NCBI GenBank assembly: GCA_028716965.1
Contig: JAQUOV010000001.1
Location: 70,448-134,447 of the forward strand
DNA length: 64,000 bases
Direction of reading: 5' to 3'
Source of the DNA: Candidatus Omnitrophota bacterium
GTDB taxonomy: Bacteria > Omnitrophota > Gorgyraeia > Gygaellales > Profunditerraquicolaceae
Made by a program: the position numbers and the translations under genes. The stretch's first letter is position 1. Each line of letters starts with the position of its first letter. Under the pieces are notes generated by a model. That model made no database searches. It was not told where the DNA came from and was given only the letters and a program-made list of their open reading frames with translations. Of the stretch, positions 2,743 to 43,724 are shown in pieces.

Positions 2743-4569
2743 CTATGCCCCTACTATCTCTTGCAATTTCTTCCTTACTCCAGGTTCATCCATTTCATTT
2801 ACAATCTTCTCTAACTCTTTTATTTTAAACCTCAATATATGCGAATCAAAATAATCTGACTGAGCAATATAAATCTTATCTATCTTGGTAGCTTTATCCT
2901 TTTCACTACTTAACAAGGTTTCCTCAAAAAGTTTCTCTCCCGGCCGCAGGCCAATAAATTTTATCTTTATGTCTTCTTCAGGCTTTAAGCCATAAAGACC
3001 AATCAACTCATTTGCCAAATCTAATATCTTGATCTGCTCACCCATATCCAAGATAAATATCTCTCCTGCCTTACCCATGCCACCGGCCTGCAGGACAAGT
3101 TGACTGGCTTCATGCACACTCATAAAATACCGCTTAACTTCCGGGTGCGTTAATGTTACAGGGCCGCCTTCTTCAATCTGTTTCTTAAATAAAGGAACAA
3201 CACTTCCGTCAGAACCTAAAACATTTCCAAATCTAACCGCCATAAACTTAGTTTTACTTATTTTGGCTTTAGACTGCAAAACCATCTCTGCGATCCTTTT
3301 AGTAATACCCATTACACTTGTCGGATTTACCGCCTTATCAGTAGAAATAAGAATAAACCTCTCGACTTTGTAGTGATCCGCGGCATAGATAAGGTTACGG
3401 CTTCCAATAATATTGTTCTTTACCGCTGCCACAGGATTTTCTTCCATAAGGGGAACATGCTTATGGGCTGCCGCGTGGAATATAACTTGCGGCTTATAAA
3501 GCGAAAACACGCTCTTCAACAGGCCGATATCTTTTATATCCCCGATTATGGTTTTAAACTTAATCTGGGGGTATTTTGTCAAGAATTCAATCCCCAAATA
3601 ATAAACATCATTCTCGTTATGATCAAATAACAATATCTCCTTGGGGTTAAAATTCACTATTTGTCTGCAAAGAGATGAGCCAATTGAGCCGCCCGCACCA
3701 GTAATCAAAACTACCTTCCCAGATAGATAACCCTTAATTTCATTTTCATTAATATTTACCGTTTCTCTACCAAGAAGGTCTTCTGGCTTAACGTCCCTGG
3801 GCTTAACCTCTAAATCGCCGTTGAGAATCCTTTGCAAACCAGGGACTATGCGAATTCTTACAGAAGATATTTGGCAATTTGAAATTATACTCCTGATTGC
3901 TTCGCCATTAGCAGAAGGGATAGCTATAATGACCTCATCAATCCCATATTTTTCAACAATTGAAGGTATATCACTACAGGCCCCTAAAATACTTATGCCT
4001 TGAATACGATAATTCTTTTTATTTCGATCATCATCAATAAAACCGATTATTTCTATATTTGCTTTAGGGTTAACCCTCACTTCTCTTAACACCATCACTC
4101 CGGCTTCCCCTGCACCTATAATAATAGCCCTTTTTAGCTTACTTCCTATAGCCGGACGGAATTTCTCCCGCAATAGCCGGGTAACAAAGCGGATCCCAGC
4201 CACCAAACAGAAACTTAAAACACATTCTAAGATGAAGATTGAACGCGGAAAACCTGCAAAAGTATGGAAAAAAGCAATCGTAGGGATAAAACAGAGCGTG
4301 GCTAAAACATGCGCCTTGGCTATTCTCCAGATATCATCTATACTGGCATATCTCCACAAACCAGAATAAAGGCCAAAGTATCCAAGAATAACCAATTTAA
4401 TACAGACAAAAATGGGGAGAGTTTTAAGAATCAGCTGCCAGACATCACTATCAATTCTAAAATCTAAGCGTAGATAAAAAGCAAGTATGTAGGCGCTCAC
4501 CACTAAAATTAAATGGATAGTTACAATAATTAAACGCCGACATTTAAAAATTAGCTCTTTCAGGCTCAT
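2743..4569 (-). CDS. Membrane-anchored UDP-sugar 4,6-dehydratase (PglF/CapD/WbpM family polysaccharide biosynthesis protein)
   Basis: Four N-terminal TM helices, then two Rossmann regions (IIIGAGEAG and VLITGAGGSIGSSLCRQI) and a catalytic region ISTDKAVNPTSVMGITKR, typical of CapD-like extended SDRs. Confidence 0.85.
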   Translation of the reverse strand: MSLKELIFKCRRLIIVTIHLILVVSAYILAFYLRLDFRIDSDVWQLILKTLPIFVCIKLVILGYFGLYSGLWRYASIDDIWRIAKAHVLATLCFIPTIAFFHTFAGFPRSIFILECVLSFCLVAGIRFVTRLLREKFRPAIGSKLKRAIIIGAGEAGVMVLREVRVNPKANIEIIGFIDDDRNKKNYRIQGISILGACSDIPSIVEKYGIDEVIIAIPSANGEAIRSIISNCQISSVRIRIVPGLQRILNGDLEVKPRDVKPEDLLGRETVNINENEIKGYLSGKVVLITGAGGSIGSSLCRQIVNFNPKEILLFDHNENDVYYLGIEFLTKYPQIKFKTIIGDIKDIGLLKSVFSLYKPQVIFHAAAHKHVPLMEENPVAAVKNNIIGSRNLIYAADHYKVERFILISTDKAVNPTSVMGITKRIAEMVLQSKAKISKTKFMAVRFGNVLGSDGSVVPLFKKQIEEGGPVTLTHPEVKRYFMSVHEASQLVLQAGGMGKAGEIFILDMGEQIKILDLANELIGLYGLKPEEDIKIKFIGLRPGEKLFEETLLSSEKDKATKIDKIYIAQSDYFDSHILRFKIKELEKIVNEMDEPGVRKKLQEIVGA

Positions 4570-4723: not shown

Positions 4724-6259
4724 TTAATTTCTTATTTCATTTCTATTTTTATCAATCCAAGCAGCAATATCATTATTGGTCTTTGTTTCATTCCTGAGAA
4801 TAGATAGAATTAAATCTCCTGTTAATACCGTATTAAAAGTTTTAGTGTATTTAACAAAATTATTTTGGCCAGCCATCTTGACCATAAATGGTATTCGATT
4901 GTCTTGCTTCATATTAAAAATTTTACTGTTGCGCAAATAATGGTCTGAAGTTACAATAATTGTGATATCATCATAAAGCTTGGATTTTTCAAGCATCCTT
5001 CGAATTTCCCCTAATGTCTTATCCGCCAATAGAAGGTTAGAAAAATATCCATTACTTTGGTCAACGAATAAGCTTATTTTTTGTTCTTTTTGGTCATAAA
5101 TAGAAGGCAAATGCGGTATGGGAAAATGCACCATGGCCAGATTGTAATCTGGATGGCCAATTATCTGCTTAACATTGTCCATTGTTTCCTCAAAAGCATC
5201 AATATGTTCTATAATTGCTGCAAAAGGCAACAAATGGATAAATTGTTCTTTCATGTTTTCTAAAAGACTGTCATAATTTCTAACAAGAAAGTATTCCCCG
5301 TGGACCTGAACACAAAAATCCAAATTATTCCCTAAGATATTACAATACGGATGATACCATCCGACAAAAGCGGAATTAAATCCTAAATTTCTAATCCGGG
5401 AAAATATGTTAGGCTGGGTTCCCCAAATAAAACGCTGATTTGTATCGGCATAGGTAATTTCCAATTTATTATTAGCCACAGGCAAAATTTTGCTCACAAG
5501 CTTCCCATCAATAAGAGCCGGAAAAACAACCATAGTTTCATCACCCGCAGGATAAGCATTCGTAGCATAAAAAGACTCTGACCGAAACCTGTCTAACTCA
5601 GGAAAGCTTAAACCGAACGGTCTTTGATCAAAAACAATCTTTTGATCGATTTCATCAAAAACTAACCATAATATACGTAAATGGTTTTGTTTTCCAACTG
5701 GTTCAACTTCTAAAATACAATCTTTTGGAGATACTGGTTTAGTTTTCTCGCATTTAACTATAGCTCCTATTGCCCCGCTAAAAGTAAAAAAAACAAAAGG
5801 AAATAAGAAAATTATACCCGCGGTTAACATTTTAAACAACAGACGGCTGAATTTCTTATAAAGCAATATCCCGAGAACAATAAGCAAAAACACAGCAACT
5901 AAACAAACCCAAATATTTAACTTCTTTAGAAAAAGTGAGACAGTAATTAACAAGGTTTGTAAAGAAAAACTCGTAGAAGTCTTCCTAATTACATTAAGAA
6001 TATTCAAAATTAAAACAAAAAAAGTAAATCTGGCGGTGCGTTGCACAAAGATATTATTACTTTTCCGAATGAGTCTTATAAAAATAAAAATCAGCGATGC
6101 CGCTATGAACACGTTGGTCATAAGCGCGAAATAACCGCTTGCGTTCGGCAAAACATGTATAGAATATTTTTGCGAATCAATAAGAAACAGGTAATTTATC
6201 CACAATTTTAAGAAACAAAGATTCGCAAAAGACATTGAGAACATTGCATCTTTAATCAT
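4724..6259 (-). CDS. Sulfatase / alkaline-phosphatase superfamily membrane protein (LtaS/EptA-like phospho-substituent transferase candidate)
   Basis: N-terminal polytopic TM region followed by a soluble domain with IIVTSDHY (the SDH motif of sulfatase/PEA-transferase folds). Confidence 0.5.
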   Translation of the reverse strand: MIKDAMFSMSFANLCFLKLWINYLFLIDSQKYSIHVLPNASGYFALMTNVFIAASLIFIFIRLIRKSNNIFVQRTARFTFFVLILNILNVIRKTSTSFSLQTLLITVSLFLKKLNIWVCLVAVFLLIVLGILLYKKFSRLLFKMLTAGIIFLFPFVFFTFSGAIGAIVKCEKTKPVSPKDCILEVEPVGKQNHLRILWLVFDEIDQKIVFDQRPFGLSFPELDRFRSESFYATNAYPAGDETMVVFPALIDGKLVSKILPVANNKLEITYADTNQRFIWGTQPNIFSRIRNLGFNSAFVGWYHPYCNILGNNLDFCVQVHGEYFLVRNYDSLLENMKEQFIHLLPFAAIIEHIDAFEETMDNVKQIIGHPDYNLAMVHFPIPHLPSIYDQKEQKISLFVDQSNGYFSNLLLADKTLGEIRRMLEKSKLYDDITIIVTSDHYLRNSKIFNMKQDNRIPFMVKMAGQNNFVKYTKTFNTVLTGDLILSILRNETKTNNDIAAWIDKNRNEIRN

Positions 6260-7688
6260 GCCTTATCCCTTTTAATGACAAAATATAAATATATCTTTCG
6301 GAACCTTCAATCCTCTCAAAACGTAGTATATTAAACTTTTCTAAAACGGCTTTCTCAAAACTCTGGCGAGTCAGATAAGCAAATAATTTCTCTCTTCCGC
6401 GCACTAATATTTTAAACATCTGGTCTTTTGGGTCAATATATTCAATAACAAGATGCCTGGTTGTCAACTCAGCTGCTAAATCCAGAATTTCATTCATGGG
6501 GATCCGCTCAGTTACCATCATGTGGTGCTTGACCGCCAGCATAAAAACAGCATCAAACTTACCCCTAGCCCTCTCTAAAAATGATTCACATTCTTTATTT
6601 AACCAACCGATACTCGGAGAAGGACGTGTCAAGTCTATATTTAATGGCAGTATATCTAATTTATATTCATACGCCTTCCGCCATAAACTACTTATAACCA
6701 CAGGGTCACTATCAATAGCTACGACCTTACTGCCGGCTTTGGCCGCAATTTCACTGAAATACCCCGTATTGCAACCTACATCCAATACCTGACGAGGCCT
6801 AAACTCATTTAAAAAATTAGAAACTATTCTATCCTTAACCTTCATTCCGTCTTCAGAATATGACATATTATTCTTAGCATAATCTGCCCATATGGATTGT
6901 CTGAGATTTACAGGCTTAAGGTTATTTATTTGCTTACGAATATTCTTAAAAAGCGCAAGAAGGATGAATGTTGCTATTTCATCTGCCTCTTCCAGCCTTT
7001 TTTTATAAATACCATAATCTTTTTTCTTTTGGATCTTTGATAATAAATTAGGTATTGCCACTATAGACAAAAAAGGCGGCAAGAATTGGCGCAAGCTACC
7101 GCAAAAATGTGATACATCTTCCGGTTCAATGCCGTCTCTACGGCTAAAGAAAATATCCGGCATCCGTAAACTAAAATATTTATTTACAAGTAGCGGTAAA
7201 GTAAAAGTACGTATAAACTGTCCATAAGGCAACCAAACGCTATCACGGGGATCGCGTTTTTCGAATGAAAGCATATCAATAAGAATGGGGTTGGGGCCTT
7301 CAAACATAATATTATATGGAGTAGCATCTTTAAGGGTATACCCTGCCGGTAGAATATCTACGGCAATATCCACCGTCAAGCAGGCTGCGGTATAAATCAT
7401 TTCAGGTGCCCACTCATAGGGATAAGACGGAAAATAGATCGCTTTGTGCTCTACTATTTCGAATTCTTCTTCTTTTAATGATATCCTATACCCTATCTCT
7501 TTTTTTTCTGGCTGTTTTAAAAACCTAGTCGCAATAACCTTCTCTTTATTTAAGAGTTTTTTACCTATGTCAGAACTTAAAAAAGATTCCAGGTCATTGC
7601 ACGAATCTTTACCTATAATTCTGAATATTTGCTTATCCAATCTAACAACAAAACCTACCGGATCCCGAAATGAAAGAACCTGCATCAA
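6252..7688 (-). CDS. Two-domain protein: unknown ~280-aa N-terminal domain fused to a class I SAM methyltransferase
   Basis: The C-terminal half carries VLDVGCNTGYFSEIAAKAGSKVVAIDSD (motif I) and DAVFMLAVKHH. The N-terminal half has no motif I recognise. Confidence 0.55.
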   Translation of the reverse strand: MMQVLSFRDPVGFVVRLDKQIFRIIGKDSCNDLESFLSSDIGKKLLNKEKVIATRFLKQPEKKEIGYRISLKEEEFEIVEHKAIYFPSYPYEWAPEMIYTAACLTVDIAVDILPAGYTLKDATPYNIMFEGPNPILIDMLSFEKRDPRDSVWLPYGQFIRTFTLPLLVNKYFSLRMPDIFFSRRDGIEPEDVSHFCGSLRQFLPPFLSIVAIPNLLSKIQKKKDYGIYKKRLEEADEIATFILLALFKNIRKQINNLKPVNLRQSIWADYAKNNMSYSEDGMKVKDRIVSNFLNEFRPRQVLDVGCNTGYFSEIAAKAGSKVVAIDSDPVVISSLWRKAYEYKLDILPLNIDLTRPSPSIGWLNKECESFLERARGKFDAVFMLAVKHHMMVTERIPMNEILDLAAELTTRHLVIEYIDPKDQMFKILVRGREKLFAYLTRQSFEKAVLEKFNILRFERIEGSERYIYILSLKGIRHD

Positions 7689-7691
7689 TAT

Positions 7692-7889
7692 CTACTCCTT
7701 ATTTTTCTTGCGCCAAAAAAACCTTAAGATCTTCTTTATTGAAAATAGGGCGCCAACAAAAAAAGAAAATACAAGTTGCCACAATAATAACCCGGAACCC
7801 GGATCAATATATGCATATGCTGATTTTACGGTCAAAAAGCTCAATATTAAAAAAACCAGAAAAATTTGACATAAATGTCTTATTTTCAT
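7692..7889 (-). CDS. Small (65 aa) signal-peptide/TM protein, hypothetical
   Basis: Hydrophobic N-terminus with a signal-like sequence, a YIDPGSGLLLWQ segment and a second hydrophobic stretch. It sits 3 nt from the next gene. It could equally be an unannotated leader or a spurious ORF. Confidence 0.3.
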   Translation of the reverse strand: MKIRHLCQIFLVFLILSFLTVKSAYAYIDPGSGLLLWQLVFSFFVGALFSIKKILRFFWRKKNKE

Positions 7890-8453
7890 CTAGTGCTTTA
7901 CTCCTTCTTTTCTTATAACCTTAGATATGGTCAATAAAATAATCTTAACATCTAAAATTAAGTTTTTATTTTTTAAATAATACTCATCAAATTCAACTTT
8001 AACCGGGATGGGCAATTCATCCCGTCCGTTAACCTGGGCCCATCCGGTAACCCCCGGGATAAGAGTATGTACATCTTTTTTAGTCCTTAATTTTATCAAA
8101 TCATCCTGATTGAATAAAGCCGGCCTTGGCCCCACGAATGTCATCTCTCCTGAAACTATGTTAAATAGTTGCGGCAATTCATCCAAACTGAAACTGCGCA
8201 AGAAAGAACCGACAGGTGTAAGGTATTGATTCACCTCTTTAAAAAGGTGTGTAGCAACTGGCGGAGTATCTGTACGCATCGTACGAAACTTATACATTTT
8301 AAATATCTTATTATTTTTCCCTACGCGGTCTGACCTGTACAATACCGGTCCGCGAGAGGAAAATTTAATAATTACCGCAAGTATGATTAACGGCAAGCTT
8401 AAACAAATCAATAATAAGACTGCGATAATTACATCAACAACCCGTTTTATCAT
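7890..8453 (-). CDS. Initiating phosphoglycosyl transferase, small monotopic PglC/WbaP-C-terminal type (bacterial sugar transferase family)
   Basis: 187 aa with a single N-terminal membrane helix and the hallmark KFRTM...DELPQLFNIVSGEMTFVGPRP motifs. Confidence 0.85.
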   Translation of the reverse strand: MIKRVVDVIIAVLLLICLSLPLIILAVIIKFSSRGPVLYRSDRVGKNNKIFKMYKFRTMRTDTPPVATHLFKEVNQYLTPVGSFLRSFSLDELPQLFNIVSGEMTFVGPRPALFNQDDLIKLRTKKDVHTLIPGVTGWAQVNGRDELPIPVKVEFDEYYLKNKNLILDVKIILLTISKVIRKEGVKH

Positions 8454-8554
8454 GTTTTACACAATTCTTAGAGTCGATAGAGACTCCATTATGGTAATAT
8501 ATCATGACTTTTATACAAAGGCTATTTTCTAGAAAAACAGGGGATACTTTAATT

Positions 8555-10219
8555 TTAGATGAAACTACGCAGTACGATTCCCAACCTTTGAATTTTCTTG
8601 AACACATGGTGATGATTCCTAACTAAAGAAAACCTCATGGTGTAAGCCCAAATTAATCTTATCGACATATACAAAACCGTAACAACCGATGAATACTCTC
8701 TGGGAAATGCTTGTTTTTGCGAAATCTTAAACCACGCGGAACAGTGTAAACAGAAGACTACCATATTAGGGGCGACAATAGCCATAAATTTTTTATGAAC
8801 CTGCTCGCTGCCGCAGAACGGACACCGTAATCGAAGCTCATAGAAATGCTTATTCCTAAAACGCTCATTAAGACGGCGCGTAGCAATGAGCGTCCCGGAA
8901 GTTATATACGTATTCATAAGATTCCACCAGCGTACTCTTAACACCAGATTATAGTACTGTCTGTCTGACATTTTTGTTAGATTTACCATTGGGAGATTCT
9001 TAACATGAGTCAACTTATTTTTAATAAGTCCCTTTTCTATCGCAAGGCGATAAATCGGTGCATCAGGAGCCGCATAAATAAGGCTCATGGTTATATGATA
9101 CACAGGATTATCCTTCCACCACGCTATGGATTCGTTGATTGTAGCAACGGTGTCAGCCGGATCGCCAAGAATAATATTGCCGACGCATTCTAGCTTTACC
9201 TGCCGGCATATTTCTAGGGCATTAATAATTTCGGCACGAGTGATGTGCTTCTCCATACTCTTCAGCACTTCATCGTTCATACTCTCTATACCAAAACCGG
9301 CAAGCATCAAACCGGAGGAGACTAATTCTTCCATTATTTTGCGACTTACATTTGTAACTCTGAACAAGGCGGTCCACTTAATATTATACGGCTTGATAAG
9401 CCTGGCTAACGCTAGCATACGGTCGTTATCAACAGATAGAAGCTCATCATTAAAACTGATCACATTTACCCTGAATGTTTTATATAAATAATCGATCTCA
9501 GCAAAAATATGAGCGAGCGACCGTTGACGGTATTTTTTGCCTAATGGATGATAGCAAAAAGTACAGGAAAATGGGCAGGATCGAGATCCTATAATCTCTG
9601 CGTAGCGAACCTCATCAAAAGCTTCCAGACTAATTATTTGCCGAGCATACTTAATATTTCCCATTGCGTCTCGAAAACCAAAATCTTTGTACTCAGGAAT
9701 CGGCAAGATATCCAGATCTTTTATTTCCTCACGCTTCTCTGTAAATATCAACCGGCCGTCGGCACTCCTAAAAGCCAGACCTTTCACAGCATTAGGCTGA
9801 TTCCGGGATTCAATTGCCTCTATCAATTCAATCAGTGTATATTCTCCTTCACCGATAACAGCATAATCCATCGGAAGATGTCTCAGGGCCAATTCAGGAT
9901 CGGCTGTTACAATCGGCCCCCCAGCCACTGTAATAACATCCTTATTGATACGTTTTGCGCTAAAAAGAATGTCATTAATTAACTCCCAGCTCCTGGTCAT
10001 CCCGCCTGTACATATCATATCCACGTGCCGTTTTGCAAGTTCCCGCTTCATCAATACATGGGTATTTTGCGATTCATGACAAAGATTTAAACACGAAACT
10101 GAGACACCGTGTCTTTTAAGAAAAGCGTAAACGGAAGCCAACCCTATCGGATAGCTATAAAATTGACCGGGGGCCGCAAAGCGGGGTATGACAAACATTA
10201 CATGTTTATTAGTAGTCAT
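8555..10219 (-). CDS. B12-binding radical SAM enzyme (class B) with C-terminal Cys-rich zinc-ribbon-like tail
   Basis: Rossmann-like N-terminal B12 domain (MFVIPRFAAPGQ...). Radical SAM cluster GSRSCPFSCTFCYH (CxxxCxxC). C-terminal CPFCGSE...CLHCSAW. The track start is probably upstream of the real one. Confidence 0.75.
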   Translation of the reverse strand: MTTNKHVMFVIPRFAAPGQFYSYPIGLASVYAFLKRHGVSVSCLNLCHESQNTHVLMKRELAKRHVDMICTGGMTRSWELINDILFSAKRINKDVITVAGGPIVTADPELALRHLPMDYAVIGEGEYTLIELIEAIESRNQPNAVKGLAFRSADGRLIFTEKREEIKDLDILPIPEYKDFGFRDAMGNIKYARQIISLEAFDEVRYAEIIGSRSCPFSCTFCYHPLGKKYRQRSLAHIFAEIDYLYKTFRVNVISFNDELLSVDNDRMLALARLIKPYNIKWTALFRVTNVSRKIMEELVSSGLMLAGFGIESMNDEVLKSMEKHITRAEIINALEICRQVKLECVGNIILGDPADTVATINESIAWWKDNPVYHITMSLIYAAPDAPIYRLAIEKGLIKNKLTHVKNLPMVNLTKMSDRQYYNLVLRVRWWNLMNTYITSGTLIATRRLNERFRNKHFYELRLRCPFCGSEQVHKKFMAIVAPNMVVFCLHCSAWFKISQKQAFPREYSSVVTVLYMSIRLIWAYTMRFSLVRNHHHVFKKIQRLGIVLRSFI

Positions 10220-10255
10220 ATTCTATGAAAAAATGCAAATGGAACTACGGATTAA

Positions 10256-11095
10256 TTATAGTTTAACCTTAGTTATTTCTACGTTAAATTTTTCTATACG
10301 AGAAGAAGATGCGGCAATCAACCCATCAGCGCTTACGCTCTCTCGTATTTTATGAGAAGCAATAATATGGTATTTATTCCTTGTTAAAATATCTAAGCAA
10401 GATTTATGTTTATTGTTTTTATGTGTTGAAATAAAAATATAGTCAATCTTAGCTGCCTTTAATGATTGCCTAGCACCTAATAACATATCGTATTCTGCCC
10501 CTTGGATATCTGAATGCAGAAGAGTCAAATTCTCCTTTATATCAAAACGCTTGATTAAATAATCAACAGAGTAGCGGGGGGTGATAAATTTTGCAGAGTC
10601 CCAATCAACAAATCTATCCTTTTCTTTATATGATCGCCCTATAAATCCGTTCAAGGCTATACAATTAAGATTATTAAGGTTAAAATTAGCTACGCCAATC
10701 TTCAACTTTTTCATGTTTGGTTCAACAATTACCGCCTTGCCACCGACCTGTTTTGTAAACCACATTGAATAGTACGACCAATTGGCTCCTAGTTCAATCA
10801 TAATATTATTTTCAGATTTTGGTATCCTTTGCAAAACTTCATAGAATACTTTCTCCTCTTGTGGTTCGTGATGCCCCTTTAATCTATCAATGATATAGGT
10901 CATCCAATCGCCTTCATAACATCCTCTAATAATTTTAAGACCATTAAACATATATTGTATTTGTTTATCTATTGTATCATCGTATTCGCTTTGACCTGCC
11001 TTACTGCATTTCAGAATGTAGTTACAATCGTCACAAGAGACGGTTAATGCTGCACGTTTCTTTTTGTCATTAGAAAAATTATTTATGTCCATCAA
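10256..11095 (-). CDS. FkbM-family methyltransferase (putative sugar O-methyltransferase)
   Basis: ELGANWSYYSMWF...AVIVEPNMKK resembles the FkbM-domain motif (D/EVGAN.G..S), and the size fits. Confidence 0.5.
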   Translation of the reverse strand: MMDINNFSNDKKKRAALTVSCDDCNYILKCSKAGQSEYDDTIDKQIQYMFNGLKIIRGCYEGDWMTYIIDRLKGHHEPQEEKVFYEVLQRIPKSENNIMIELGANWSYYSMWFTKQVGGKAVIVEPNMKKLKIGVANFNLNNLNCIALNGFIGRSYKEKDRFVDWDSAKFITPRYSVDYLIKRFDIKENLTLLHSDIQGAEYDMLLGARQSLKAAKIDYIFISTHKNNKHKSCLDILTRNKYHIIASHKIRESVSADGLIAASSSRIEKFNVEITKVKL

Positions 11096-11113
11096 TCTAT
11101 GCTCCTCATTGAA

Positions 11114-12232
11114 TTAATTATTCAATAAATCCATATCCCTGCTTTTTTGAATTATTTTTTTCTCTATAGCGGTAGCTAATAACTTGTGGCCATTTTCATT
11201 CCAATGTCCGTCTTTTAAAAAAAGCCCTCCCAAAGCAGATTTATATACTTGAAGTTGTTCTCTTCTTATATCTATCACATCAACACTTAAACTTACACAT
11301 AGCTTTTTAATAATATTAAGTGGTTTATCAATATTAATTTTGTTTAAATCCAGCTCGCTCTGAGTTAATAAATTCCTGCGATAAGGATCAAGGACATACG
11401 AAGGATACGCCAGACACACGATTGGCATTGACCCTTCATTAAAAATTGACAATAAAAATTTCTTCAAAATTGCCTCTGTCCGGTTAACACAATCTGTTAT
11501 CTCTGGAGGATATTTATCGCTATATAATTCCATTTCCTTTGTATAGAATTGCTGCTTTCTTGCATGCTGAGCCTTTAGCCTAAAAATGGCGTTGCGCAAA
11601 AAAGACAATAACCTTACTCTTGATAATGCGCTTCTTAAGAAACCTTTCTTGTATGGAACAAACTCCTCAGCTACAAGATCACCGTTTTCTGAAACAGAAA
11701 AATATGGCCTATGCCTCATTAAATCAATACTAGGCAGGCACTCTGAAAGGATTTTATCATTATCTATAAAGTCATTGACCGAAAATACGATAATCACAAA
11801 ATCAGGGCGATACTTCTTTACATACGCCCAATAAGTTAAATATTCATTGGTTGTTCCAAAACTAGATACGCCAAAATTCATAACTTCACTTTTTATAACT
11901 GAATTTAAACTCTTTTCTAAAACAGTAGTTAACATGTCACTTTGGTTAACTTGTAATGCTTCAACAAAAGAATCCCCTATTACTGCTATTCTCAAAACTC
12001 CCTTTTTATTTTCTAACTGGTGATCAATATCACGAAACCCTTCTTTATTAAATTTTACTTTTGCTTTAAACCCTGGTCCATAGAATACCCCAGAGAAATT
12101 CGGAGTATGCTTCCACCCTATCAGATTGTCGCTTTGCCAATAGTTAATATCAATCAGCAAGGCTTGAGATATGATTATTAAGAGAAAAAAAGGTACTGCT
12201 ACAATTATAAGTAAGCTTTTTGTTTTGCTCAT
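11114..12232 (-). CDS. SGNH/GDSL hydrolase-fold protein with N-terminal membrane anchor (AlgX/AlgJ-like glycan O-acyl modifying candidate)
   Basis: N-terminal TM helix, then RIAVIGDSFVEAL (GDS block I) and a later DGHWNENGH (block V-like DxxH). Confidence 0.5.
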   Translation of the reverse strand: MSKTKSLLIIVAVPFFLLIIISQALLIDINYWQSDNLIGWKHTPNFSGVFYGPGFKAKVKFNKEGFRDIDHQLENKKGVLRIAVIGDSFVEALQVNQSDMLTTVLEKSLNSVIKSEVMNFGVSSFGTTNEYLTYWAYVKKYRPDFVIIVFSVNDFIDNDKILSECLPSIDLMRHRPYFSVSENGDLVAEEFVPYKKGFLRSALSRVRLLSFLRNAIFRLKAQHARKQQFYTKEMELYSDKYPPEITDCVNRTEAILKKFLLSIFNEGSMPIVCLAYPSYVLDPYRRNLLTQSELDLNKINIDKPLNIIKKLCVSLSVDVIDIRREQLQVYKSALGGLFLKDGHWNENGHKLLATAIEKKIIQKSRDMDLLNN

Positions 12233-12268
12233 TTATTACCAGCGGCTCAAGAATTATAAACTGTTATC

Positions 12269-13081
12269 TTAGTTGCTACGATCGTGATCTTTCTCCAAAA
12301 ACCATAGATTTGCCCAGACAGCAAAACGAAATACCGAATAAAGCACGGCTAATATAAAACCTTCAACACCATCTAAAAATCCTGCACGCACTATATACAT
12401 TACCATAAAAGTCCTTAAAGGCTGGAAGATAAGTTTGTGTAATCTAAATTTCTTCTTTTTATCAAACATATTTTTAGCTTCAATTAAAGCATATATACCA
12501 ATTGTCTTATCAATATATCTTTTAATCGAAGGATATGGGTAATGTTCTATATAATAACTGAGTGGTAATTCTTCTCGGTTTTTTACCTTTTCTTTTAAAT
12601 TAATAAAATCGTGATGTATAAATTCATCACGCTGATCATAAGTTTCTAAATATACTTTTTTTCTAAAGAACCTCGGGAAATTATTACTAAAAAATCCTCC
12701 GTGCCTAATCATTTTTCCAAAGTAATTATAGAAAATCCCGACAAATACCACATCCACCCTGTCTTGCTTAGCAATTTCCTTTAACTTTATGGCTAACCTT
12801 TCAGTCATTACCTCATCAGCGTCAATTACTAATACCCATTCGCAAGAGGCGTTTGATATAGCAAAATATCTGGTGGGCGAAACATATCCGATTTTTTCAT
12901 AATAAACAACAACCGCCCCTAATTCTTTAGCTATTTCAACCGTCTTATCCTCACTATACCCATCGCAAACTATGATTTCGTCAGCTATACACTTGACACT
13001 TTCTATGCAGCGACGGATATTGCTTGCTTCGTTCAAAGTATTAATAACTACCGAAATCTTCTTCAGCTTATTTTGCGTCAT
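12269..13081 (-). CDS. Family 2 glycosyltransferase
   Basis: ISVVINTLNEASNIRRCIESV, DGYSEDKTVEIAKE and VIDADE (DXD) are a classic GT-A/GT2 N-terminal domain. Confidence 0.85.
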   Translation of the reverse strand: MTQNKLKKISVVINTLNEASNIRRCIESVKCIADEIIVCDGYSEDKTVEIAKELGAVVVYYEKIGYVSPTRYFAISNASCEWVLVIDADEVMTERLAIKLKEIAKQDRVDVVFVGIFYNYFGKMIRHGGFFSNNFPRFFRKKVYLETYDQRDEFIHHDFINLKEKVKNREELPLSYYIEHYPYPSIKRYIDKTIGIYALIEAKNMFDKKKKFRLHKLIFQPLRTFMVMYIVRAGFLDGVEGFILAVLYSVFRFAVWANLWFLEKDHDRSN

Positions 13082-13110
13082 TCATATGGAGTCGAATTAA
13101 ACGACTTATC

Positions 13111-13728
13111 CTATTTTTGGTCCAATATTGTTTTTATATAATCAATCAACGGTTCCGAATCTGTAATATGGACATGCTCATCGCTCTTCTCTGGAATTAG
13201 AAATCCGTCTTTATCGGAGTATTTTTCATAAACATCAATAAAAAGATATTTGCTCTCCCGCAAGCGATCATTAAGCCTCTTAACAAAACTAAGGCGCTCT
13301 TCATCTGAACCCAGAAAAGGAAAATCCAAGTTTTCCTTAACTTTTGCTTTACGCGGAGGAGGTAGAACATTAAAAAGCCAAATATTCGGGTGAATCTTTG
13401 CGTTATGATCTACGGCCGCCAAATAATCACTGGCTAGCTTATCAATTGTTTCCGGCCAAGGAGGATGCTTATAAATATGGCAACGACAATCTATCTCCCC
13501 AAAACAAAAAACTACAATCGCATCCTTAGGGATATCTTTAACTACTATTGGACTATCCTGACCAAAACTGTACATTGTCATTGGCCCAATAGTCTGCGTC
13601 TTTACAAAAGGAATCTTAATCCATGCGTATCTACAATGGCTATCTCCTACCGTATAAATAAGTGGTTTATCTTTTAACAAAAATCTATTCCAGATTATTT
13701 TCCAGGATAGCACTCTATACACTCCCAA
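13111..13728 (-). CDS. Hypothetical protein, possible SGNH-hydrolase-like
   Basis: YTVGDSHCRY (GDSH), FGEIDCRCH and C-terminal DEHVH are weakly SGNH-like. No other motif recognised. Confidence 0.35.
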   Translation of the reverse strand: MGVYRVLSWKIIWNRFLLKDKPLIYTVGDSHCRYAWIKIPFVKTQTIGPMTMYSFGQDSPIVVKDIPKDAIVVFCFGEIDCRCHIYKHPPWPETIDKLASDYLAAVDHNAKIHPNIWLFNVLPPPRKAKVKENLDFPFLGSDEERLSFVKRLNDRLRESKYLFIDVYEKYSDKDGFLIPEKSDEHVHITDSEPLIDYIKTILDQK

Positions 13729-13939
13729 AGTTTTAATCGCATATTGATAAACTTCTTAAACTCCAGAAATATTTTCTGTTGTTCTCTAGCTCCAAACCGA
13801 CACATTTCATGCTTTACTTCTTACGCACTTTCTCACTCACAAGCCATTACCCTATCCTTAAACTTCCTAGAGTCTTTCGGACCGCATTTTATTGCTCTTT
13901 TATATAAACCAATCTTAGATGCGTTAAGATTACCGCCAA

Positions 13940-15238
13940 TCAGGCCTTTATATAATTCCGGAAGATAGCATACGCTGCCCACAACCAAGCAAAAATGAAG
14001 AAGATTAATTTTATAGAATTATATTTAATTGCACCCTGATTTCCGAAAAAACATATTTCGCTAGCTACGTTATCCAATAACGAGACAACTACCAAACAGA
14101 TTACTGTTAATTCTAATGAGAATAAGGACCCAATATAAATTGCAATAAGCGTTACCGCCACACGAATAATGCCCAATATAGTATAAATATAACCAAAGCC
14201 TAATATTTTCGAGTAATCATAGTTAAGACCAACAATCATTCCGGTAGGCAAGGAAACGGAGAATATTTGTACTAGAGGTATCATTGGATTCCATTTGCTC
14301 CCCATAATCGCAGGAATAACTATGGGCGATAGAAAATATGTAGCAATACTTAAGATAAACGATATCAAACCAATAATATAAAAATACTGATAGTACCTTA
14401 AATTGTAATAATTATAATCATTTTTACGTTGAGCAATATCGGAAAAAACAACTTTTTGTACCTGCGGAGTAACAGTATTGGGTATTAAATAAGATAAAGT
14501 ATTACCTGTTTTATAAAAACCCAAATTGTAAATGCCTAAAATTTTTCCGACAATAAGCGAATCAACTTGGGTAACAAAGAAACCACATACGGAAAAAGCC
14601 AAGATATGTTTTCCTAAATTAAACAAGCGCGAGAATACGGCCAGGTTAAAATAAAGTTTTGGCTTCCATCCAGATCTCACTAAAAGAAAACAAACGGTCA
14701 TCGCCCTCCCAGAGAGATAGCCGATAATTAAAGCAAAAACTCCAAAGCCCTTTAGGGCTAATAAATAAGTAATTACTCCATATAATAAAACAGGCAATAT
14801 CTGACGATAAAACAAAACGTTATATTTGTTACTTTTCATATAGAAAGTTTCTAACGGGTACTCTAGGCAGTAAATAAAAATCATTAACCCATAAATAATC
14901 AACACAATTTTAAGCGCAGGAACTTCAAACCAAAAGGCAATATATTTTGCCAGAATAAAAATAATAGCATAGATAATAACTCCCAAAAACAGCTGGACCG
15001 TAAATTGCATAGAAATTAAATTATTATCATCCTGCTCAATGATAATTGCTTGAGAGATCCCCAAATCTTTAATGATCTCAATAAAACCAATTACCGCAGC
15101 GGCGATCGCAAATAATCCAAAATCATCGGGGTTTAAAATTCTCGCAATCAAAATCGTAAAAAGTGGGAAGATCGCCTGCGCGAGAAATTTGCCGCCGATA
15201 TTCCAACCGACATTCTTAACTATTTTCTTATTCAACAT
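13940..15238 (-). CDS. wzx: Wzx-type oligosaccharide flippase (MOP/polysaccharide biosynthesis protein family)
   Basis: 432 aa with about 12 TM helices. The N-terminus KNVGWNIGGKFLAQAIFPLFTILIARILNPDDFGLFAIA is typical of Wzx/PST family proteins. Confidence 0.7.
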   Translation of the reverse strand: MLNKKIVKNVGWNIGGKFLAQAIFPLFTILIARILNPDDFGLFAIAAAVIGFIEIIKDLGISQAIIIEQDDNNLISMQFTVQLFLGVIIYAIIFILAKYIAFWFEVPALKIVLIIYGLMIFIYCLEYPLETFYMKSNKYNVLFYRQILPVLLYGVITYLLALKGFGVFALIIGYLSGRAMTVCFLLVRSGWKPKLYFNLAVFSRLFNLGKHILAFSVCGFFVTQVDSLIVGKILGIYNLGFYKTGNTLSYLIPNTVTPQVQKVVFSDIAQRKNDYNYYNLRYYQYFYIIGLISFILSIATYFLSPIVIPAIMGSKWNPMIPLVQIFSVSLPTGMIVGLNYDYSKILGFGYIYTILGIIRVAVTLIAIYIGSLFSLELTVICLVVVSLLDNVASEICFFGNQGAIKYNSIKLIFFIFAWLWAAYAIFRNYIKA

Positions 15239-17876: not shown

Positions 17877-18980
17877 CTAGTTTGCCGATAATAATATATC
17901 AAACAGCCCTTTCCAATCCCGCGAAAAAGGCTCGGCAATTATTTCAGGATTTATATTTTCAAAAACAGCTACCCCATCCATCACTATTTTCATCACATCA
18001 GCCAATTGCTCATGGTTATCGGTATTAAAAAACTTGGCCTTGCCATAAGCGCCTAAAGTCTCGTGGGCATAAGGCAGGTCCGCAAGCAGTAACGGTTTAT
18101 CGTATTTTTTAAACTCGGTAATCGGTAATCCCCAGGTTTCTAACTTTGAGGGGAAAATCAGGCAATCTGCGGTATCATAAAGATTAATGATATCCTCCCT
18201 TCTCTGCAGGCCCAGGAAAATAATATTCTTCATATTCCCGAAAGAATTATAAATGCCCCTGGAATACCAGTTTTCTTTTCCGGAAATTGTAAATATGACC
18301 TTAAAATTAGTGACTCCCCGTTTCAACAGCGCCTGCGCAGCCTTGCAGATAACTTCAAAGTTTTTAAAAACCCTGGGAAAGGCCGGATAAAGGAAGGTAA
18401 AATCTCCTTCGCGCCTTATAATGCCCCCCTGTCTCTTTGAGAAATTTCCATCATGGACTTTCGGGTGGGCAACGATTACGTTCTTAAGCCCGAACAGCTT
18501 CCTGAATTCCCGCCTTAACCAATCTTGTTGCACAATCACGAAATCAGCCTTGCGGATATTTATCATATAGAGGTATTTATAAAACAGGTTAAACAAGGCA
18601 AATCTCGGATCCTTTATAGCCTGTCCGAACGATAAATCATAAAAAGGCGAGGCGTTGTGGCAATAAACCGCCAAACGTTGCGCTTTAACATTCGAAGTAA
18701 TGTCGTGAAGGGACAACCAAAGAAAAGGATTGAGCCGTTTCGACAACTTGTTAAAAAAAATGTATTCATAGTATAAACGGTTAAGCCATGATTTCTTTGA
18801 TTGCGGGAATTCCAAATATTCCATATTCCCACAGCTAAACAGCCCTTTTCTGTTTACGAGCGCAATTATCTCGTATTTATCCGATAAGTCTTCCGATAAA
18901 TACTCCAGGCATTCCTGCAATACGGTTAAAGGCCCTGCCTCAAGCAGGTTAATAGCGGAAACAATGATTTTTCTTCTCAT
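17877..18980 (-). CDS. GT-B fold glycosyltransferase (GT4/GT1-like)
   Basis: C-terminal CLIFPSKLETWGLPITEFKKYDKPLL matches the GT4 E-x7-E motif region. Confidence 0.6.
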   Translation of the reverse strand: MRRKIIVSAINLLEAGPLTVLQECLEYLSEDLSDKYEIIALVNRKGLFSCGNMEYLEFPQSKKSWLNRLYYEYIFFNKLSKRLNPFLWLSLHDITSNVKAQRLAVYCHNASPFYDLSFGQAIKDPRFALFNLFYKYLYMINIRKADFVIVQQDWLRREFRKLFGLKNVIVAHPKVHDGNFSKRQGGIIRREGDFTFLYPAFPRVFKNFEVICKAAQALLKRGVTNFKVIFTISGKENWYSRGIYNSFGNMKNIIFLGLQRREDIINLYDTADCLIFPSKLETWGLPITEFKKYDKPLLLADLPYAHETLGAYGKAKFFNTDNHEQLADVMKIVMDGVAVFENINPEIIAEPFSRDWKGLFDILLSAN

Positions 18981-20287
18981 GATTTCTTGGCAACCAAAAT
19001 ACCCGGCCCGGTTTTATTATGGATTTTATATGCAAAATAATAAACCCATACAAAGAAAAACAAACCATTGTAAAAATAATGGGCCTGCCGCAACAAGTAT
19101 AGGATAAATAGTATGAATATCCCGTTGCTTATTATTTGCAGCTTATGGTTATTATCCATTTTAAGCCGGAATCTAAATATAAAAAAGAAAACTATAATGA
19201 TGCCGAATATACCTGTTTCGGAAACCAACCGGAGGAAAAGCGAGCCAGAATCGCCTTTGCAAACCTCAATAGTTTGCCCAACAGGTAATGTAGGATACAA
19301 AAATCCCCTTGAAACACCTAAGTTAAAGAATTTATCATATGAAACGGGATGGCTCCCTAAACCCATGCCAAATAAAAAGTTATTTATAAAACTATTGAAA
19401 GCAATAAAAGCATTACTAACAACCGCATAAACGCTCATGTGCGTAGCATGACTTACGGATGGATGACTGAAAAATGCTATGGTACCATTAATCCTCATGC
19501 GTATATCCGGTATTAAATTATAAACAGCAAAACTTAAAACCGGAATGGTTACCGCTAAAATTAATAAATATCGTTTTTTCTTAGGGCGCGGGAACAGTAG
19601 CAGACTTATTAAAATTGCCGCATAGGCAATGATTGAAAATGTTAAAATATAACTAATTATTATCACGAAATTTGCCCACCTTGCCTTTAGGAAAAGGTTG
19701 CTTTTCTTAATGATAGCCAAGAACGAGGCAAAGAATGCCGGGGCCATGGAAATAGCAAAATGTGCCGGCTCCATAAAAATTGAATTGATTCTCAGCAACT
19801 TTGACAATGCCCCTCCCGCATGTCCACACTCCCACTTTACCAACATCGGTATCCACTTAAAATCATAACCCGCTTTAAATCCTACTAAAAAACTAAATTG
19901 CTGGAATATCCCGATAGCCGCCACTATAAACGCAATCTGCAAATAAATTTTAAACAAATTATCAATTTCGTAATTATTGATTTTAACTAGGATATAATAA
20001 GCAATCCCGGTAATTAAAATACCTGAAATCTGTTTTGCTAAAAGAAAAATAGTATTGTTGCCAAGATATACGTTAAAAAGTGATGATATGGTTAAAATAA
20101 TCAGGATAAAAATAAAGCTTAGGTTTATGCACAGGCTACGATAAAATCTAAGATACGCAACCAGAAAAAATATTATAAAAAGATAGCCGAGATTGAACTC
20201 AAACGGATAGCGAAACAAAGTAAATGCTCCACCGAAAACATTAAAAACAAGTAAATAATTAAAAACTGTGATCATGCGCGAAGGCAT
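18977..20287 (-). CDS. Polytopic membrane protein, putative oligosaccharide repeat-unit polymerase (Wzy-like)
   Basis: 436 aa with at least ten hydrophobic helices and a larger loop near the C-terminal third. No catalytic motif can be assigned. Its position between glycosyltransferases is typical for Wzy. Confidence 0.4.
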   Translation of the reverse strand: MPSRMITVFNYLLVFNVFGGAFTLFRYPFEFNLGYLFIIFFLVAYLRFYRSLCINLSFIFILIILTISSLFNVYLGNNTIFLLAKQISGILITGIAYYILVKINNYEIDNLFKIYLQIAFIVAAIGIFQQFSFLVGFKAGYDFKWIPMLVKWECGHAGGALSKLLRINSIFMEPAHFAISMAPAFFASFLAIIKKSNLFLKARWANFVIIISYILTFSIIAYAAILISLLLFPRPKKKRYLLILAVTIPVLSFAVYNLIPDIRMRINGTIAFFSHPSVSHATHMSVYAVVSNAFIAFNSFINNFLFGMGLGSHPVSYDKFFNLGVSRGFLYPTLPVGQTIEVCKGDSGSLFLRLVSETGIFGIIIVFFFIFRFRLKMDNNHKLQIISNGIFILFILYLLRQAHYFYNGLFFFVWVYYFAYKIHNKTGPGILVAKKS

Positions 20288-20289
20288 CT

Positions 20290-21330
20290 CTATATACTCC
20301 GTGTAAGAAATAGTTTCTTAATCTTATGTACCCGGGGGCTTTTAACTATCTTGCGCTTTAGATTTACCGCTATAGCCACAAGCTTTTTTTGCCTACCCAG
20401 GGAATAGCAGGATTGCGCCATTCTTCGGCTATAACCAAATTTAAGCAATTTAGCGCTAAAATCCCTCCATAATTCCGGGCTGCCAATAAATGATGCCGCA
20501 TGGATTATCGTGTACCACGGATGCTCGCGTGTCATAACTTTCAAAAAAGCCTTTCTTACCTTGAGGTCATCCGATAAATACTTATTTGCCAGCCGCAAAT
20601 AGCCGTTAAAATCCAAAAGGAACCTGTCGACCAGCCCTCCGTCATCCTGAAAGCTTACGTTATCATTACGCCACAAAACAAGCGGGCTTTTAATATACTT
20701 CAGCCTGCATTTATGCCTAACAAAAGATAAAATCACCGAAGCAGAAGCATAAGCCGTCCCTTCAAAATCATGGCTATACCCTGCTTTATTCCATTCCCGC
20801 CGGCTTAGGATAACCGAACTCCAGAAACTAAAAAGCGCTCCGATTGAACTGGCCCTTTCGCAATACTCAATAAGCTCATCCTTCTTGTGAAGGTTAAAAA
20901 CCCTGTCATTAACTTTAGCAGAAAGCCAAAACCGGTCTCTGATTGGCTTCATATCCAGATTGCAGGCTGTTACGTTGCAAAGGTATATTTCATACCCGGA
21001 ATCAATCTCTTTTAACATTCGCTCAATTGAGCCAGGCTTTAAAGCATCATCGTCCGAAAACAACCAGCAGTATTCTCCGCGCGCTGCGGCAATAGCTTTT
21101 GCCATATCTCTGTCCACTCCGCCGTTTTCCTCCTGGCGACAGTAAATTAAATTCCTGAATTTCTTCCGATAACCAAGCACCACCTCCTGCGTGTTATCGC
21201 AAGAGGCACCGTCAACAACTACAATCTCTATACTATTATCAGCCTGAGAAATAATACTCTCAATGGCCGTACCGATAAAATTGGCGCGGTTACGCGTAGG
21301 TATACATATAGATATTCTTATATTATCCAA
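20290..21330 (-). CDS. Family 2 glycosyltransferase
   Basis: ISICIPTRNRANFIGTAIESIISQ, IEIVVVDGASCDNT and FSDDD. Confidence 0.85.
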   Translation of the reverse strand: MDNIRISICIPTRNRANFIGTAIESIISQADNSIEIVVVDGASCDNTQEVVLGYRKKFRNLIYCRQEENGGVDRDMAKAIAAARGEYCWLFSDDDALKPGSIERMLKEIDSGYEIYLCNVTACNLDMKPIRDRFWLSAKVNDRVFNLHKKDELIEYCERASSIGALFSFWSSVILSRREWNKAGYSHDFEGTAYASASVILSFVRHKCRLKYIKSPLVLWRNDNVSFQDDGGLVDRFLLDFNGYLRLANKYLSDDLKVRKAFLKVMTREHPWYTIIHAASFIGSPELWRDFSAKLLKFGYSRRMAQSCYSLGRQKKLVAIAVNLKRKIVKSPRVHKIKKLFLTRSI

Positions 21331-22306
21331 CTCTCTCCCTTTCTAAATCAGCTTCAACCATAAGTTTAACCAGTTTTTTAAACTTAATCTTTGGGCTAAA
21401 CCCGAATGTTTTTCTGGCTTTTGTTATATCCCCAACCAATGAAGATGTCTTGCTCGGGCGGATTAATTTAGGATCAATAACCAGGTATTTATCCGGCTTA
21501 AGATTTAAAACGGAAAAAGCCTCCTCCACCCATTCCTTGACGGAATGCGACTGTCCCGTAGCGATAACAAAATCATCCGCTTTATCTAATTGCATAATCT
21601 GCCATGCCGCCTCCATAAACTCTTTGGAATAACCCCAATCAATACGCGCGCTTAAATCCCCTAAAACTAATTTCTTTTGCTTGCCTAGATATATACGTGC
21701 CACAGCTTGAGTAATTTTACGCGTTACATATTCGGGAGTCCTGCGGGGGGATTCATGGTTATATAGTATGGCACCTGATGCAAATAAACCAAAGGCCTGG
21801 CGATAATACCGCGTAAGATAATAAGCAAAGACTTTGGCGCAGGCATACGGGCTTTGGGGGTTAAAAAAGGTAGATTCATTTTGTTTGGCAGTAGGCGTTA
21901 AGCCAAACATATTGGACGTACAAGGTTGAAAATAACGTATCTTATGGTTAACCTGCCGGATAATCTCTAAAATACGGCCTACTGCTGCGCCGGTGATATC
22001 CGCAGAGTAACCCACCATATCATAGCTCCAACTTACATGGTCCTGGTCAGCTTCATTATAAATCTCCTGGGGCCTTACGGAATTGATAATCCTAAAAATG
22101 GAGGTCGCATCAGCAAGGTCGCCGCGGTGCAAGAAAAAATTATGATTAAAAATCTCTCTATTTTGAATCAGATGTTCAATATTGCGCGTGTTACCGGTTG
22201 CAGAGCGGCGGAGCATTCCGTGCACCTGATACCCCTTTTCAAGCAAGACCTCTGCCAAATAACTGCCGTCTTGTCCGGTTACTCCTAAAATCAATGCTTT
22301 TTTCAT
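21323..22306 (-). CDS. gmd: GDP-mannose 4,6-dehydratase
   Basis: MKKALILGVTGQDGSYLAEVLLEKGYQVHGMLRRSA...NTRNIEHL is near-identical in pattern to Gmd N-termini. The YxxxK region is present. Confidence 0.9.
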   Translation of the reverse strand: MKKALILGVTGQDGSYLAEVLLEKGYQVHGMLRRSATGNTRNIEHLIQNREIFNHNFFLHRGDLADATSIFRIINSVRPQEIYNEADQDHVSWSYDMVGYSADITGAAVGRILEIIRQVNHKIRYFQPCTSNMFGLTPTAKQNESTFFNPQSPYACAKVFAYYLTRYYRQAFGLFASGAILYNHESPRRTPEYVTRKITQAVARIYLGKQKKLVLGDLSARIDWGYSKEFMEAAWQIMQLDKADDFVIATGQSHSVKEWVEEAFSVLNLKPDKYLVIDPKLIRPSKTSSLVGDITKARKTFGFSPKIKFKKLVKLMVEADLERERVG

Positions 22307-43723: not shown

Positions 43724-43724
43724 T

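Follow-up and report, generated by a model that had tools for sequence, protein, structure and literature searches.

The gene at 8555..10219 on the minus strand of the window (the whole 64-kb stretch of DNA that was analysed) encodes a predicted B12-binding radical SAM protein with a C-terminal ribbon of four invariant cysteines. Judged from the sequences compared, this ribbon is the defining feature of a large clade and no oddity of a single gene. The genomic contexts of the gene and of its relatives supported a place in glycan biosynthesis, and not in a cofactor or antibiotic operon. The enzyme is most likely a cobalamin-dependent class B radical SAM C-methyltransferase that tailors a surface-glycan sugar or sugar substituent, a reading held with moderate confidence. 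Class B radical SAM enzymes as such are already known; for the present architecture, with its dedication to envelope-glycan clusters, there is no characterised member, no dedicated Pfam or NCBIfam model and no mention in the literature searched.

The open reading frame encoded 554 aa from its first ATG, with the stop codon at 8555-8557. An NCBI entry (MDD5560577.1, 'radical SAM protein', 547 aa, from a Candidatus Omnitrophota MAG) was the identical protein from M8 on. M8 (coordinate 10198) is probably the true start, with a product of 547 aa, because homologues begin at the M8 position and the NCBI entry does likewise. The Pfam B12-binding model PF02310 matched aa 20-132 (63.0 bits; cut-off 32.1), and PF04055 matched the radical SAM core at aa 210-358 (65.5 bits; cut-off 29.5; 9146..9592, minus strand). 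The protein is predicted by these matches to belong to the radical SAM superfamily, and to class B by the N-terminal Rossmann-type domain that precedes the core. The assignment in the preliminary description of this DNA, a B12-binding (class B) radical SAM enzyme, was therefore upheld by the HMM check, with both matches above cut-off.

Conservation was measured in an alignment of 82 full-length homologues (35-87% identity to the query; mean column identity 47%), in which 31 columns were invariant. The putative cobalamin-binding domain (aa 20-132; 9824..10162, minus strand), delimited by PF02310 and by invariant columns, was the most conserved part of the family, with 13 of the 31 invariant columns; the GG and GEGE motifs are among these. 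Invariant residues of this domain included G72, M74, G100-G101 ('VAGG') and G123-E124-G125-E126 ('GEGE'). The [4Fe-4S] motif CX3CX2C of the core corresponded to C215, C219 and C222 ('CPFSCTFC'; 9554-9577), all three invariant, and the core also bore a conserved G310-x-E312 motif ('GIES'). From the 82-sequence alignment, AlphaFold2 gave a very confident model (mean pLDDT 95.1; pTM 0.92) in which a Rossmann-type N-domain is followed by the radical SAM barrel, then by a beta-rich ribbon (aa 443-500) and finally by three helices; the core superposed on many radical SAM structures. A further candidate metal site at C43, C47 and H48 ('CLNLCH') was dropped, C43 and C47 being less than 90% conserved in a larger alignment.

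The C-terminal beta-rich Cys4 ribbon (aa 443-500; 8720..8893, minus strand) was delimited by its invariant Cys, by the AlphaFold2 model and by a weak Lar match. Its motif, CPFCGSEQVHKKFMAIVAPNMVVFCLHC (aa 466-493; 8741-8824), had one knuckle at C466-P-F-C469 (8813-8824) and another at C490-L-H-C493 (8741-8752), with 20 residues between them. Seven of the 31 invariant columns were Cys, namely the three cluster ligands plus C466, C469, C490 and C493. The conservation of the tail motif is, from the alignment, far above chance, since these four Cys were invariant at the mean column identity given above and the remaining five Cys of the protein, which are not cluster ligands, were not. In the model both CxxC knuckles lay at the ends of beta-hairpins (pLDDT 95-98 in aa 443-500), with strands at 457-465, 472-477, 485-489 and 496-500. 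The CPFC...CLHC ribbon of the preliminary description was thus recovered as a predicted Cys4 module with the layout of a zinc ribbon or rubredoxin-like site (two CxxC on hairpins); judging from the sequence, its metal could be Zn or Fe.

Profile matches to the ribbon were weak (Pfam Lar_restr_allev, 18.9 bits, under its 28.6 cut-off) or sub-threshold (NCBIfam TIGR03655 zinc ribbon, 23.3; cut-off 39.6). A model of the tail only (aa 436-554, AlphaFold2 on a single sequence) reached a pLDDT of 57, too low for a fold comparison. A tail-only phmmer search of 1.8 billion representatives, a search of low sensitivity, gave six matches, which were full-length relatives or proteins of 124-277 aa resembling gene fragments; the ribbon module was not seen there in other architectures.

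Just past the conserved K498 of the ribbon began a basic amphipathic helical tail (aa 501-554; 8558..8719, minus strand), opening with the near-invariant A504 and F505. Helices were modelled by AlphaFold2 at 511-527, 531-535 and 537-553. The 61 residues after C493 contained 10 K/R and one D/E, and the mean net charge of the tail across the subfamily was +9.7. The tail is predicted to form no transmembrane helix, because the highest 19-residue hydropathy windows averaged 0.93 (only 3 of the 82 sequences reached 1.6). It may serve for peripheral docking, either on anionic membrane or on a substrate that bears a pyrophosphate or a nucleotide. As the tail is cationic and amphipathic, a lipid-linked intermediate is a possible substrate; this suggestion comes from the protein and not from gene order.

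The extent of the ribbon was assessed in loci taken from species-representative genomes (80 loci) and from metagenome look-ups (12 loci), whose non-redundant B12-radical SAM open reading frames were scored against the query. A ribbon was called where C-x2-C-x(10-40)-C-x2-C occurred, and a close relative was one with at least 250 bits to the query. The ribbon was present in 96 of 101 close relatives, from bacteria and archaea, at 243-263 residues past the CX3CX2C motif, and in none of the 37 more distant B12-radical SAM open reading frames (< 250 bits). The distant proteins without it include the three other B12-radical SAM proteins of the window (29604-31130, 37459-38967 and 59765-61177; 20-27% identity to the query). 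The preliminary description had treated the tail as an extra that is not expected in the family; these counts reversed that view. Only the characterised class B enzymes and the models of Pfam and NCBIfam are without the ribbon.

The clade extended over Omnitrophota, Patescibacteria, Planctomycetota, Nitrospinota, Desulfobacterota, Firmicutes, Methanoperedens/Methanosarcinales and DPANN archaea, and was widespread in anaerobes and uncultivated lineages, often with several copies in one glycan cluster. It comprised two groups. Members of the group of the query had a short tail (median 55 aa) with a median net charge of +9, and members of the second group had a neutral extension of ~130 aa without a Pfam match.

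The 64-kb window was a single same-strand glycan supercluster. It contained GT2 and GT1 glycosyltransferases, a Wzx flippase, a Wzy_C protein, an ABC exporter, PglF/PseB-type dehydratases, DegT aminotransferases, a GDP-mannose dehydratase, a TylC3-type sugar C-methyltransferase, two NeuB synthases (each with a cytidylyltransferase) and several class I methyltransferases, together with four B12-radical SAM genes and two SPASM radical SAM genes. The GDP-mannose dehydratase gene lay at 21323-22306 and a PglF-like dehydratase gene at 2743-4569; with the DegT products, they led to a prediction of GDP- and UDP-sugars for the cluster. As the preliminary description had it, the gene was placed between a PglC-like transferase and an FkbM methyltransferase. 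Downstream, after a gap of 101 nt, lay a PglC-like polyprenyl-phosphate phosphoglycosyl transferase (7890..8453, minus strand; 187 aa; Pfam Bac_transf, 199.5 bits; also identified by NCBIfam), and upstream, after 36 nt, an FkbM-family SAM methyltransferase (10256..11095, minus strand; Pfam Methyltransf_21), all on one strand. No terminator-like site was seen in the 101-nt gap, in promoter and terminator scans that performed at chance level, and the radical SAM and transferase genes are probably co-transcribed. An Rfam scan of the window returned no cobalamin riboswitch and no other family.

Close homologues (38-87% identity) supplied 11 distinct neighbourhoods, every one of them a glycan cluster and often with two to four B12-radical SAM paralogues. 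GT10/GT11 fucosyltransferase-family genes were frequent in them, and some relatives were found in ABC-transporter (Wzm/Wzt) clusters. A wider Pfam scan, with two genes on each side at 79 loci, covered 270 neighbouring proteins, among which the leading families were Radical_SAM (44), GT2 (27), B12-binding (17), Epimerase (12), FkbM (10) and SPASM (10); Wzx flippase (at least 8) and DegT (5) followed. No unrelated pathway emerged from the 11 close contexts or the 79 wider loci, and the membership of the enzyme in glycan clusters that the preliminary description had assumed was borne out.

An FkbM or class I SAM methyltransferase lay within two genes of the enzyme in 6 of the 11 close contexts. 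Co-occurrence with FkbM was taken from the Pfam counts; an HMM iterated from FkbM neighbours was discarded, having drifted to an unrelated multi-copy family of ~400 aa and to radical SAM genes. The recurrence of a nearby SAM methyltransferase is a suggestive functional hint, and suggestive only, because clusters of this type commonly carry methyltransferases. Gene order around the enzyme was not conserved, and neither was adjacency to the transferase, so that no partner, substrate or first-sugar role can be read from synteny.

The family profile matched the solved structures of MgmA (6.5e-25), AprD4 (2.9e-18), CysS (1.2e-15) and TsrM (8.3e-14), and also those of OxsB and TokK. The MgmA structure (9CCB) is that of the methyl-coenzyme M reductase glutamine C-methyltransferase, also named QCMT (PMC11796369). 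Matches to TsrM, CysS, OxsB, TokK and MgmA included the N-terminal domain, over longer stretches in TsrM, CysS and OxsB and over the VVGG..GEGE stretch in MgmA. The match to AprD4, which ranked second by structure and by profile, comprised the core only (positions 200-400). AprD4 dehydrates a sugar diol without cobalamin in spite of its B12-like fold, so a fold of this type alone is no proof of cobalamin use. Real cobalamin use by the enzyme is nevertheless favoured by the profile matches through the B12 domain and by the conservation of that domain.

TsrM, CysS and TokK (6WTE, 9N1B and 7KDX; 16-19% identity) have C-terminal domains that are helical or otherwise unrelated, without the Cys4 ribbon, and their substrates are natural-product intermediates. 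AprD4 (PDB 6FD2), the radical SAM 1,2-diol dehydratase of apramycin biosynthesis, is also without the ribbon, and its N-domain was unmatched by the family profile. A radical SAM enzyme that acts on a membrane-bound substrate, tetraether synthase (Tes/GDGT-MAS; PDB 7TOL), has an added mononuclear metal site with Cys ligands in its rubredoxin-like domain and serves as a precedent (PMC13459092).

All 22 NCBIfam equivalog matches were under their curated cut-offs. The best were the ladderane-lipid B12 radical SAM (131.9; cut-off 360), HpnJ (131.8; cut-off 577.6) and PhpK (131.3; cut-off 600), and these three matches stopped near aa 391-405, ahead of the ribbon. The cut-offs of Sden_1168, BchE, Mmp10-type MJ_0865, BzaD, HpnR and the TsrM-type model were also missed. 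The best equivalogs differ from one another (ladderane, the proposed ring contraction of HpnJ, the P-methylase PhpK) and all were far below cut-off, so the chemistry is not fixed by homology. HpnJ is a B12-domain radical SAM enzyme proposed to act on a lipid-linked amino sugar (PMC13459092). The query is no member of this hopanoid cyclitol-ether radical SAM family (TIGR03471; E 3.2e-38, match ending at aa 405), and no hopanoid genes were found in the window.

The nearest functional precedents for the proposed role are GenK and GenD1, likened to the enzyme by function and not by sequence. They perform class B C-methylation of sugar carbons (gentamicin C-6' and C-4'') on an assembled glycoside, and the GenK/GenD1/GenN/GenL methylation network to which they belong, and which includes ordinary SAM methyltransferases, acts on assembled aminoglycoside sugars (PMC12689558). 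The methyltransferases found within two genes of the enzyme in close contexts parallel this network. GenK and GenD1 come from actinomycete secondary-metabolite clusters, whereas the clusters described here are cell-envelope glycan clusters. We know of no ribbon in GenK or GenD1.

We infer cobalamin use, methyl transfer, the nature of the substrate and the roles of ribbon and tail; the mechanism is proposed by analogy with MgmA, CysS, TokK and GenK/GenD1. Following the class B methyltransferase chemistry reviewed in PMC12931638 (cob(I)alamin methylation, 5'-deoxyadenosyl radical, methylcobalamin donation), a first SAM would methylate cob(I)alamin, and cleavage of a second SAM at the [4Fe-4S] cluster would yield a 5'-deoxyadenosyl radical. 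This radical would take a hydrogen from an unactivated carbon of the sugar or sugar substituent, and the resulting substrate radical would accept the methyl from methylcobalamin. The Zn- or Fe-binding ribbon would sit where the substrate-binding C-terminal 'cap' lies in solved class B enzymes, and most likely shapes the substrate pocket, given that C-terminal domains bind substrate in those enzymes (PMC9204698). The basic amphipathic tail may provide the docking to membrane or substrate suggested above. The enzyme would then be one of several decorators encoded in the supercluster, with the FkbM and class I methyltransferases, the three other B12-radical SAM proteins and the two SPASM radical SAM proteins. 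Patescibacteria, which are among the hosts of the clade, are usually without cobalamin synthesis, and this would count against cobalamin use.

An alternative is a non-methylating radical SAM reaction on a sugar. It could be an AprD4-like 1,2-diol dehydration, with the deoxygenation completed by a neighbouring SDR reductase, an HpnJ- or OxsB-like ring contraction, or an epimerisation, with the B12-type domain serving as a structural element or electron sink. The rank of AprD4 among the matches, and equivalogs that leave the chemistry unfixed, count against the methyl-transfer reading. The AprD4 match, however, omitted the N-terminal domain through which the genuine cobalamin binders matched, and a merely structural role sits poorly with a B12 domain that is the most conserved part of the family. 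An SDR partner would be uninformative, since SDR genes are ubiquitous in glycan clusters, and ring contraction of the HpnJ kind is opposed by the wide gap between the HpnJ score and its cut-off. We regard non-methylating chemistry as rather unlikely, and methyl transfer as the preferred reading.

The preliminary description had taken the placement of the gene to suggest modification of an undecaprenyl-linked sugar or of the first sugar of the repeat unit, and a version of this, in which the enzyme and the adjacent PglC-like transferase work together and the first sugar is modified while linked to undecaprenyl pyrophosphate, was weighed against the wider data. Adjacency and probable co-transcription in the window (a 101-nt gap without a terminator) agree with it, a cationic amphipathic tail would suit work at the membrane interface, and GenK and GenD1 act on assembled glycosides and not on nucleotide sugars (PMC12689558). 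The association was not general, however. A Bac_transf homologue lay within 10 kb (phmmer E < 1e-5) at only one of ~88 other non-redundant loci (L016), and a phosphoglycosyl transferase appeared in none of the 10 annotated close contexts in precomputed Pfam lists. Orthologues at 73-87% identity adjoined differing genes (GT2, GT11, epimerase or methyltransferase), and the Wzm/Wzt clusters of some relatives likewise speak against it. Placement beside the transferase therefore lost its force as an argument, and a first-sugar role is quite improbable. That the enzyme serves a RiPP, lipid or cofactor pathway and is merely embedded in the cluster is more improbable still, to the point of being a very weak contender. 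Radical SAM was the commonest neighbour Pfam, SPASM accompanied ten of these 44 proteins, and the top NCBIfam matches were lipid and phosphonate enzymes; yet the additional radical SAM genes were themselves within glycan clusters, as in the window, no precursor-peptide, lipid or cofactor genes recurred at the 79 loci, and GT2, Wzx, epimerase, DegT and FkbM genes recurred across phyla. Tailoring of a glycan sugar by C-methylation remained the preferred reading.

To our knowledge, nearly all class B radical SAM enzymes characterised so far belong to pathways for antibiotics, cofactors, lipids or protein modification. No class B radical SAM enzyme in an O-antigen, capsule, S-layer type or flagellin-glycosylation context was found in the literature searched. 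A bolder form of the preferred reading, which we consider a long shot, is that the clade would be the first class B family for primary cell-envelope glycans. Its sugar modifications would be new to surface polysaccharides: it might install C-methyl branches at unactivated positions or, with the adjacent FkbM or class I methyltransferase, convert O-methyl to O-ethyl or O-isopropyl groups in the manner of CysS/CndI. In place of a structural zinc, the Cys4 site would hold a rubredoxin-like iron and pass electrons on to the cluster. If surface sugars are indeed C-methylated or otherwise rearranged by these enzymes, their hosts would have a wider range of sugars than current glycan databases suggest. 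Cobalamin availability would then help to determine the cell surface. Such enzymes can be sought by a simple sequence signature, the invariant Cys4 ribbon.

Fused forms were seen in two loci, the second of them (L088) with a protein without the ribbon. The first was an 838-aa protein of the ribbon clade fused to a class I methyltransferase in a Methanosarcinales MAG (L010). Its 11 closest relatives (80-89% identity) were all unfused and 560-562 aa long, and for this reason the fusion was given little weight as a functional clue; it is a single case and possibly reflects a lost stop codon.

Besides the gene of the 554-aa B12-binding radical SAM protein with a C-terminal Cys4 ribbon (8555-10219), the same cluster contained three further genes for B12-binding radical SAM proteins, all on the minus strand (29604-31130, 508 aa; 37459-38967, 502 aa; and 59765-61177, 470 aa). 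Their products were 20-27% identical to the 554-aa protein, and the Cys4 ribbon was absent from all three. Two SPASM-domain radical SAM genes were also located within the glycan cluster (36423-37469, 348 aa; 51343-52410, 355 aa; both minus strand), with no peptide-precursor context seen around them. In other loci, SPASM radical SAM genes also occurred beside genes of the ribbon clade, i.e., relatives with the invariant Cys4 ribbon (10 of 270 neighbours).

The window appeared to encode two separate nonulosonic-acid pathways, with two NeuB synthases (31941-32954 and 49098-50144) and one cytidylyltransferase (CMP-transferase) with each (31127-31927 and 42950-43849). A cytidylyltransferase/NeuB pair directly adjoined the B12-binding radical SAM gene at 29604-31130. 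The nonulosonic-acid gene set also took in the stretches 55673-57855 and 62422-63958. Accompanying the NeuB and CMP-transferase genes were a PseB-like dehydratase, a DegT aminotransferase, WbqC, GNAT and a HisH/HisF-like amidotransferase pair, together with unusual companions (nitroreductase, aldo-keto reductase, HpcH aldolase, 2-hydroxyacid dehydrogenase and a cyclase).

The G+C content of the 554-aa protein's gene was 41.4%, as against 38.8% for the window overall, and was 33-34% in most genes around it (4724-15238; sulfatase-family, FkbM, GDSL, GT2 and Wzx), a pattern typical of a conserved enzyme amid low-GC, fast-evolving serotype-specific genes. At the thresholds used, the Pfam scan returned no match for six sizeable ORFs within the cluster, all on the minus strand (13111-13728, 205 aa; 18977-20287, 436 aa; 34594-36426, 610 aa; 47343-49097, 584 aa; 57803-59752, 649 aa; and 61177-62412, 411 aa). 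An overlap of 134 nt was seen between a GT2 ORF (27818-28756) and the epimerase ORF upstream of it (28623-29597; both minus strand); probably the GT2 gene truly starts at a more downstream position, or else a frameshift is present.

Roughly two thirds of ribbon-clade members (focal genes, loci L013-L081 from other genomes and metagenomes) had, in place of the basic tail, a neutral extension of approximately 120-190 aa after the ribbon (e.g., L024:9983-11785 and L071:9917-11752). This extension matched no Pfam family, and its sequence pattern was Rossmann-like. Much longer members were found in L036 (1182 aa) and L064 (769 aa). In a Methanosarcinales MAG (CAYHXI010000088.1), a single ORF of 838 aa (L010:36-2552, plus strand) encoded a ribbon-clade B12-binding radical SAM protein continuous with a SAM methyltransferase of class I (Methyltransf_31, aa 674-793). 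The relatives closest to this ORF (80-89% identity) were unfused, with 560-562 aa, and the ORF reflects a rare fusion or else the loss of a stop codon.

In loci of Desulfobacterota and Firmicutes, arrays of tandem paralogues of approximately 370-430 aa each (L025:13656-21219; L033, L045, L046, L077 and L019) adjoined those ribbon-clade genes that have the long tail; these paralogues were matched when the iterated HMM seeded with FkbM neighbours drifted. Ribbon-clade genes also shared glycan clusters with TPP-dependent enzymes, acetolactate-synthase-like and E1/transketolase-like (L087:158-1930 and L004:4132-6112), reminiscent of YerE-type branched-chain sugar synthesis.
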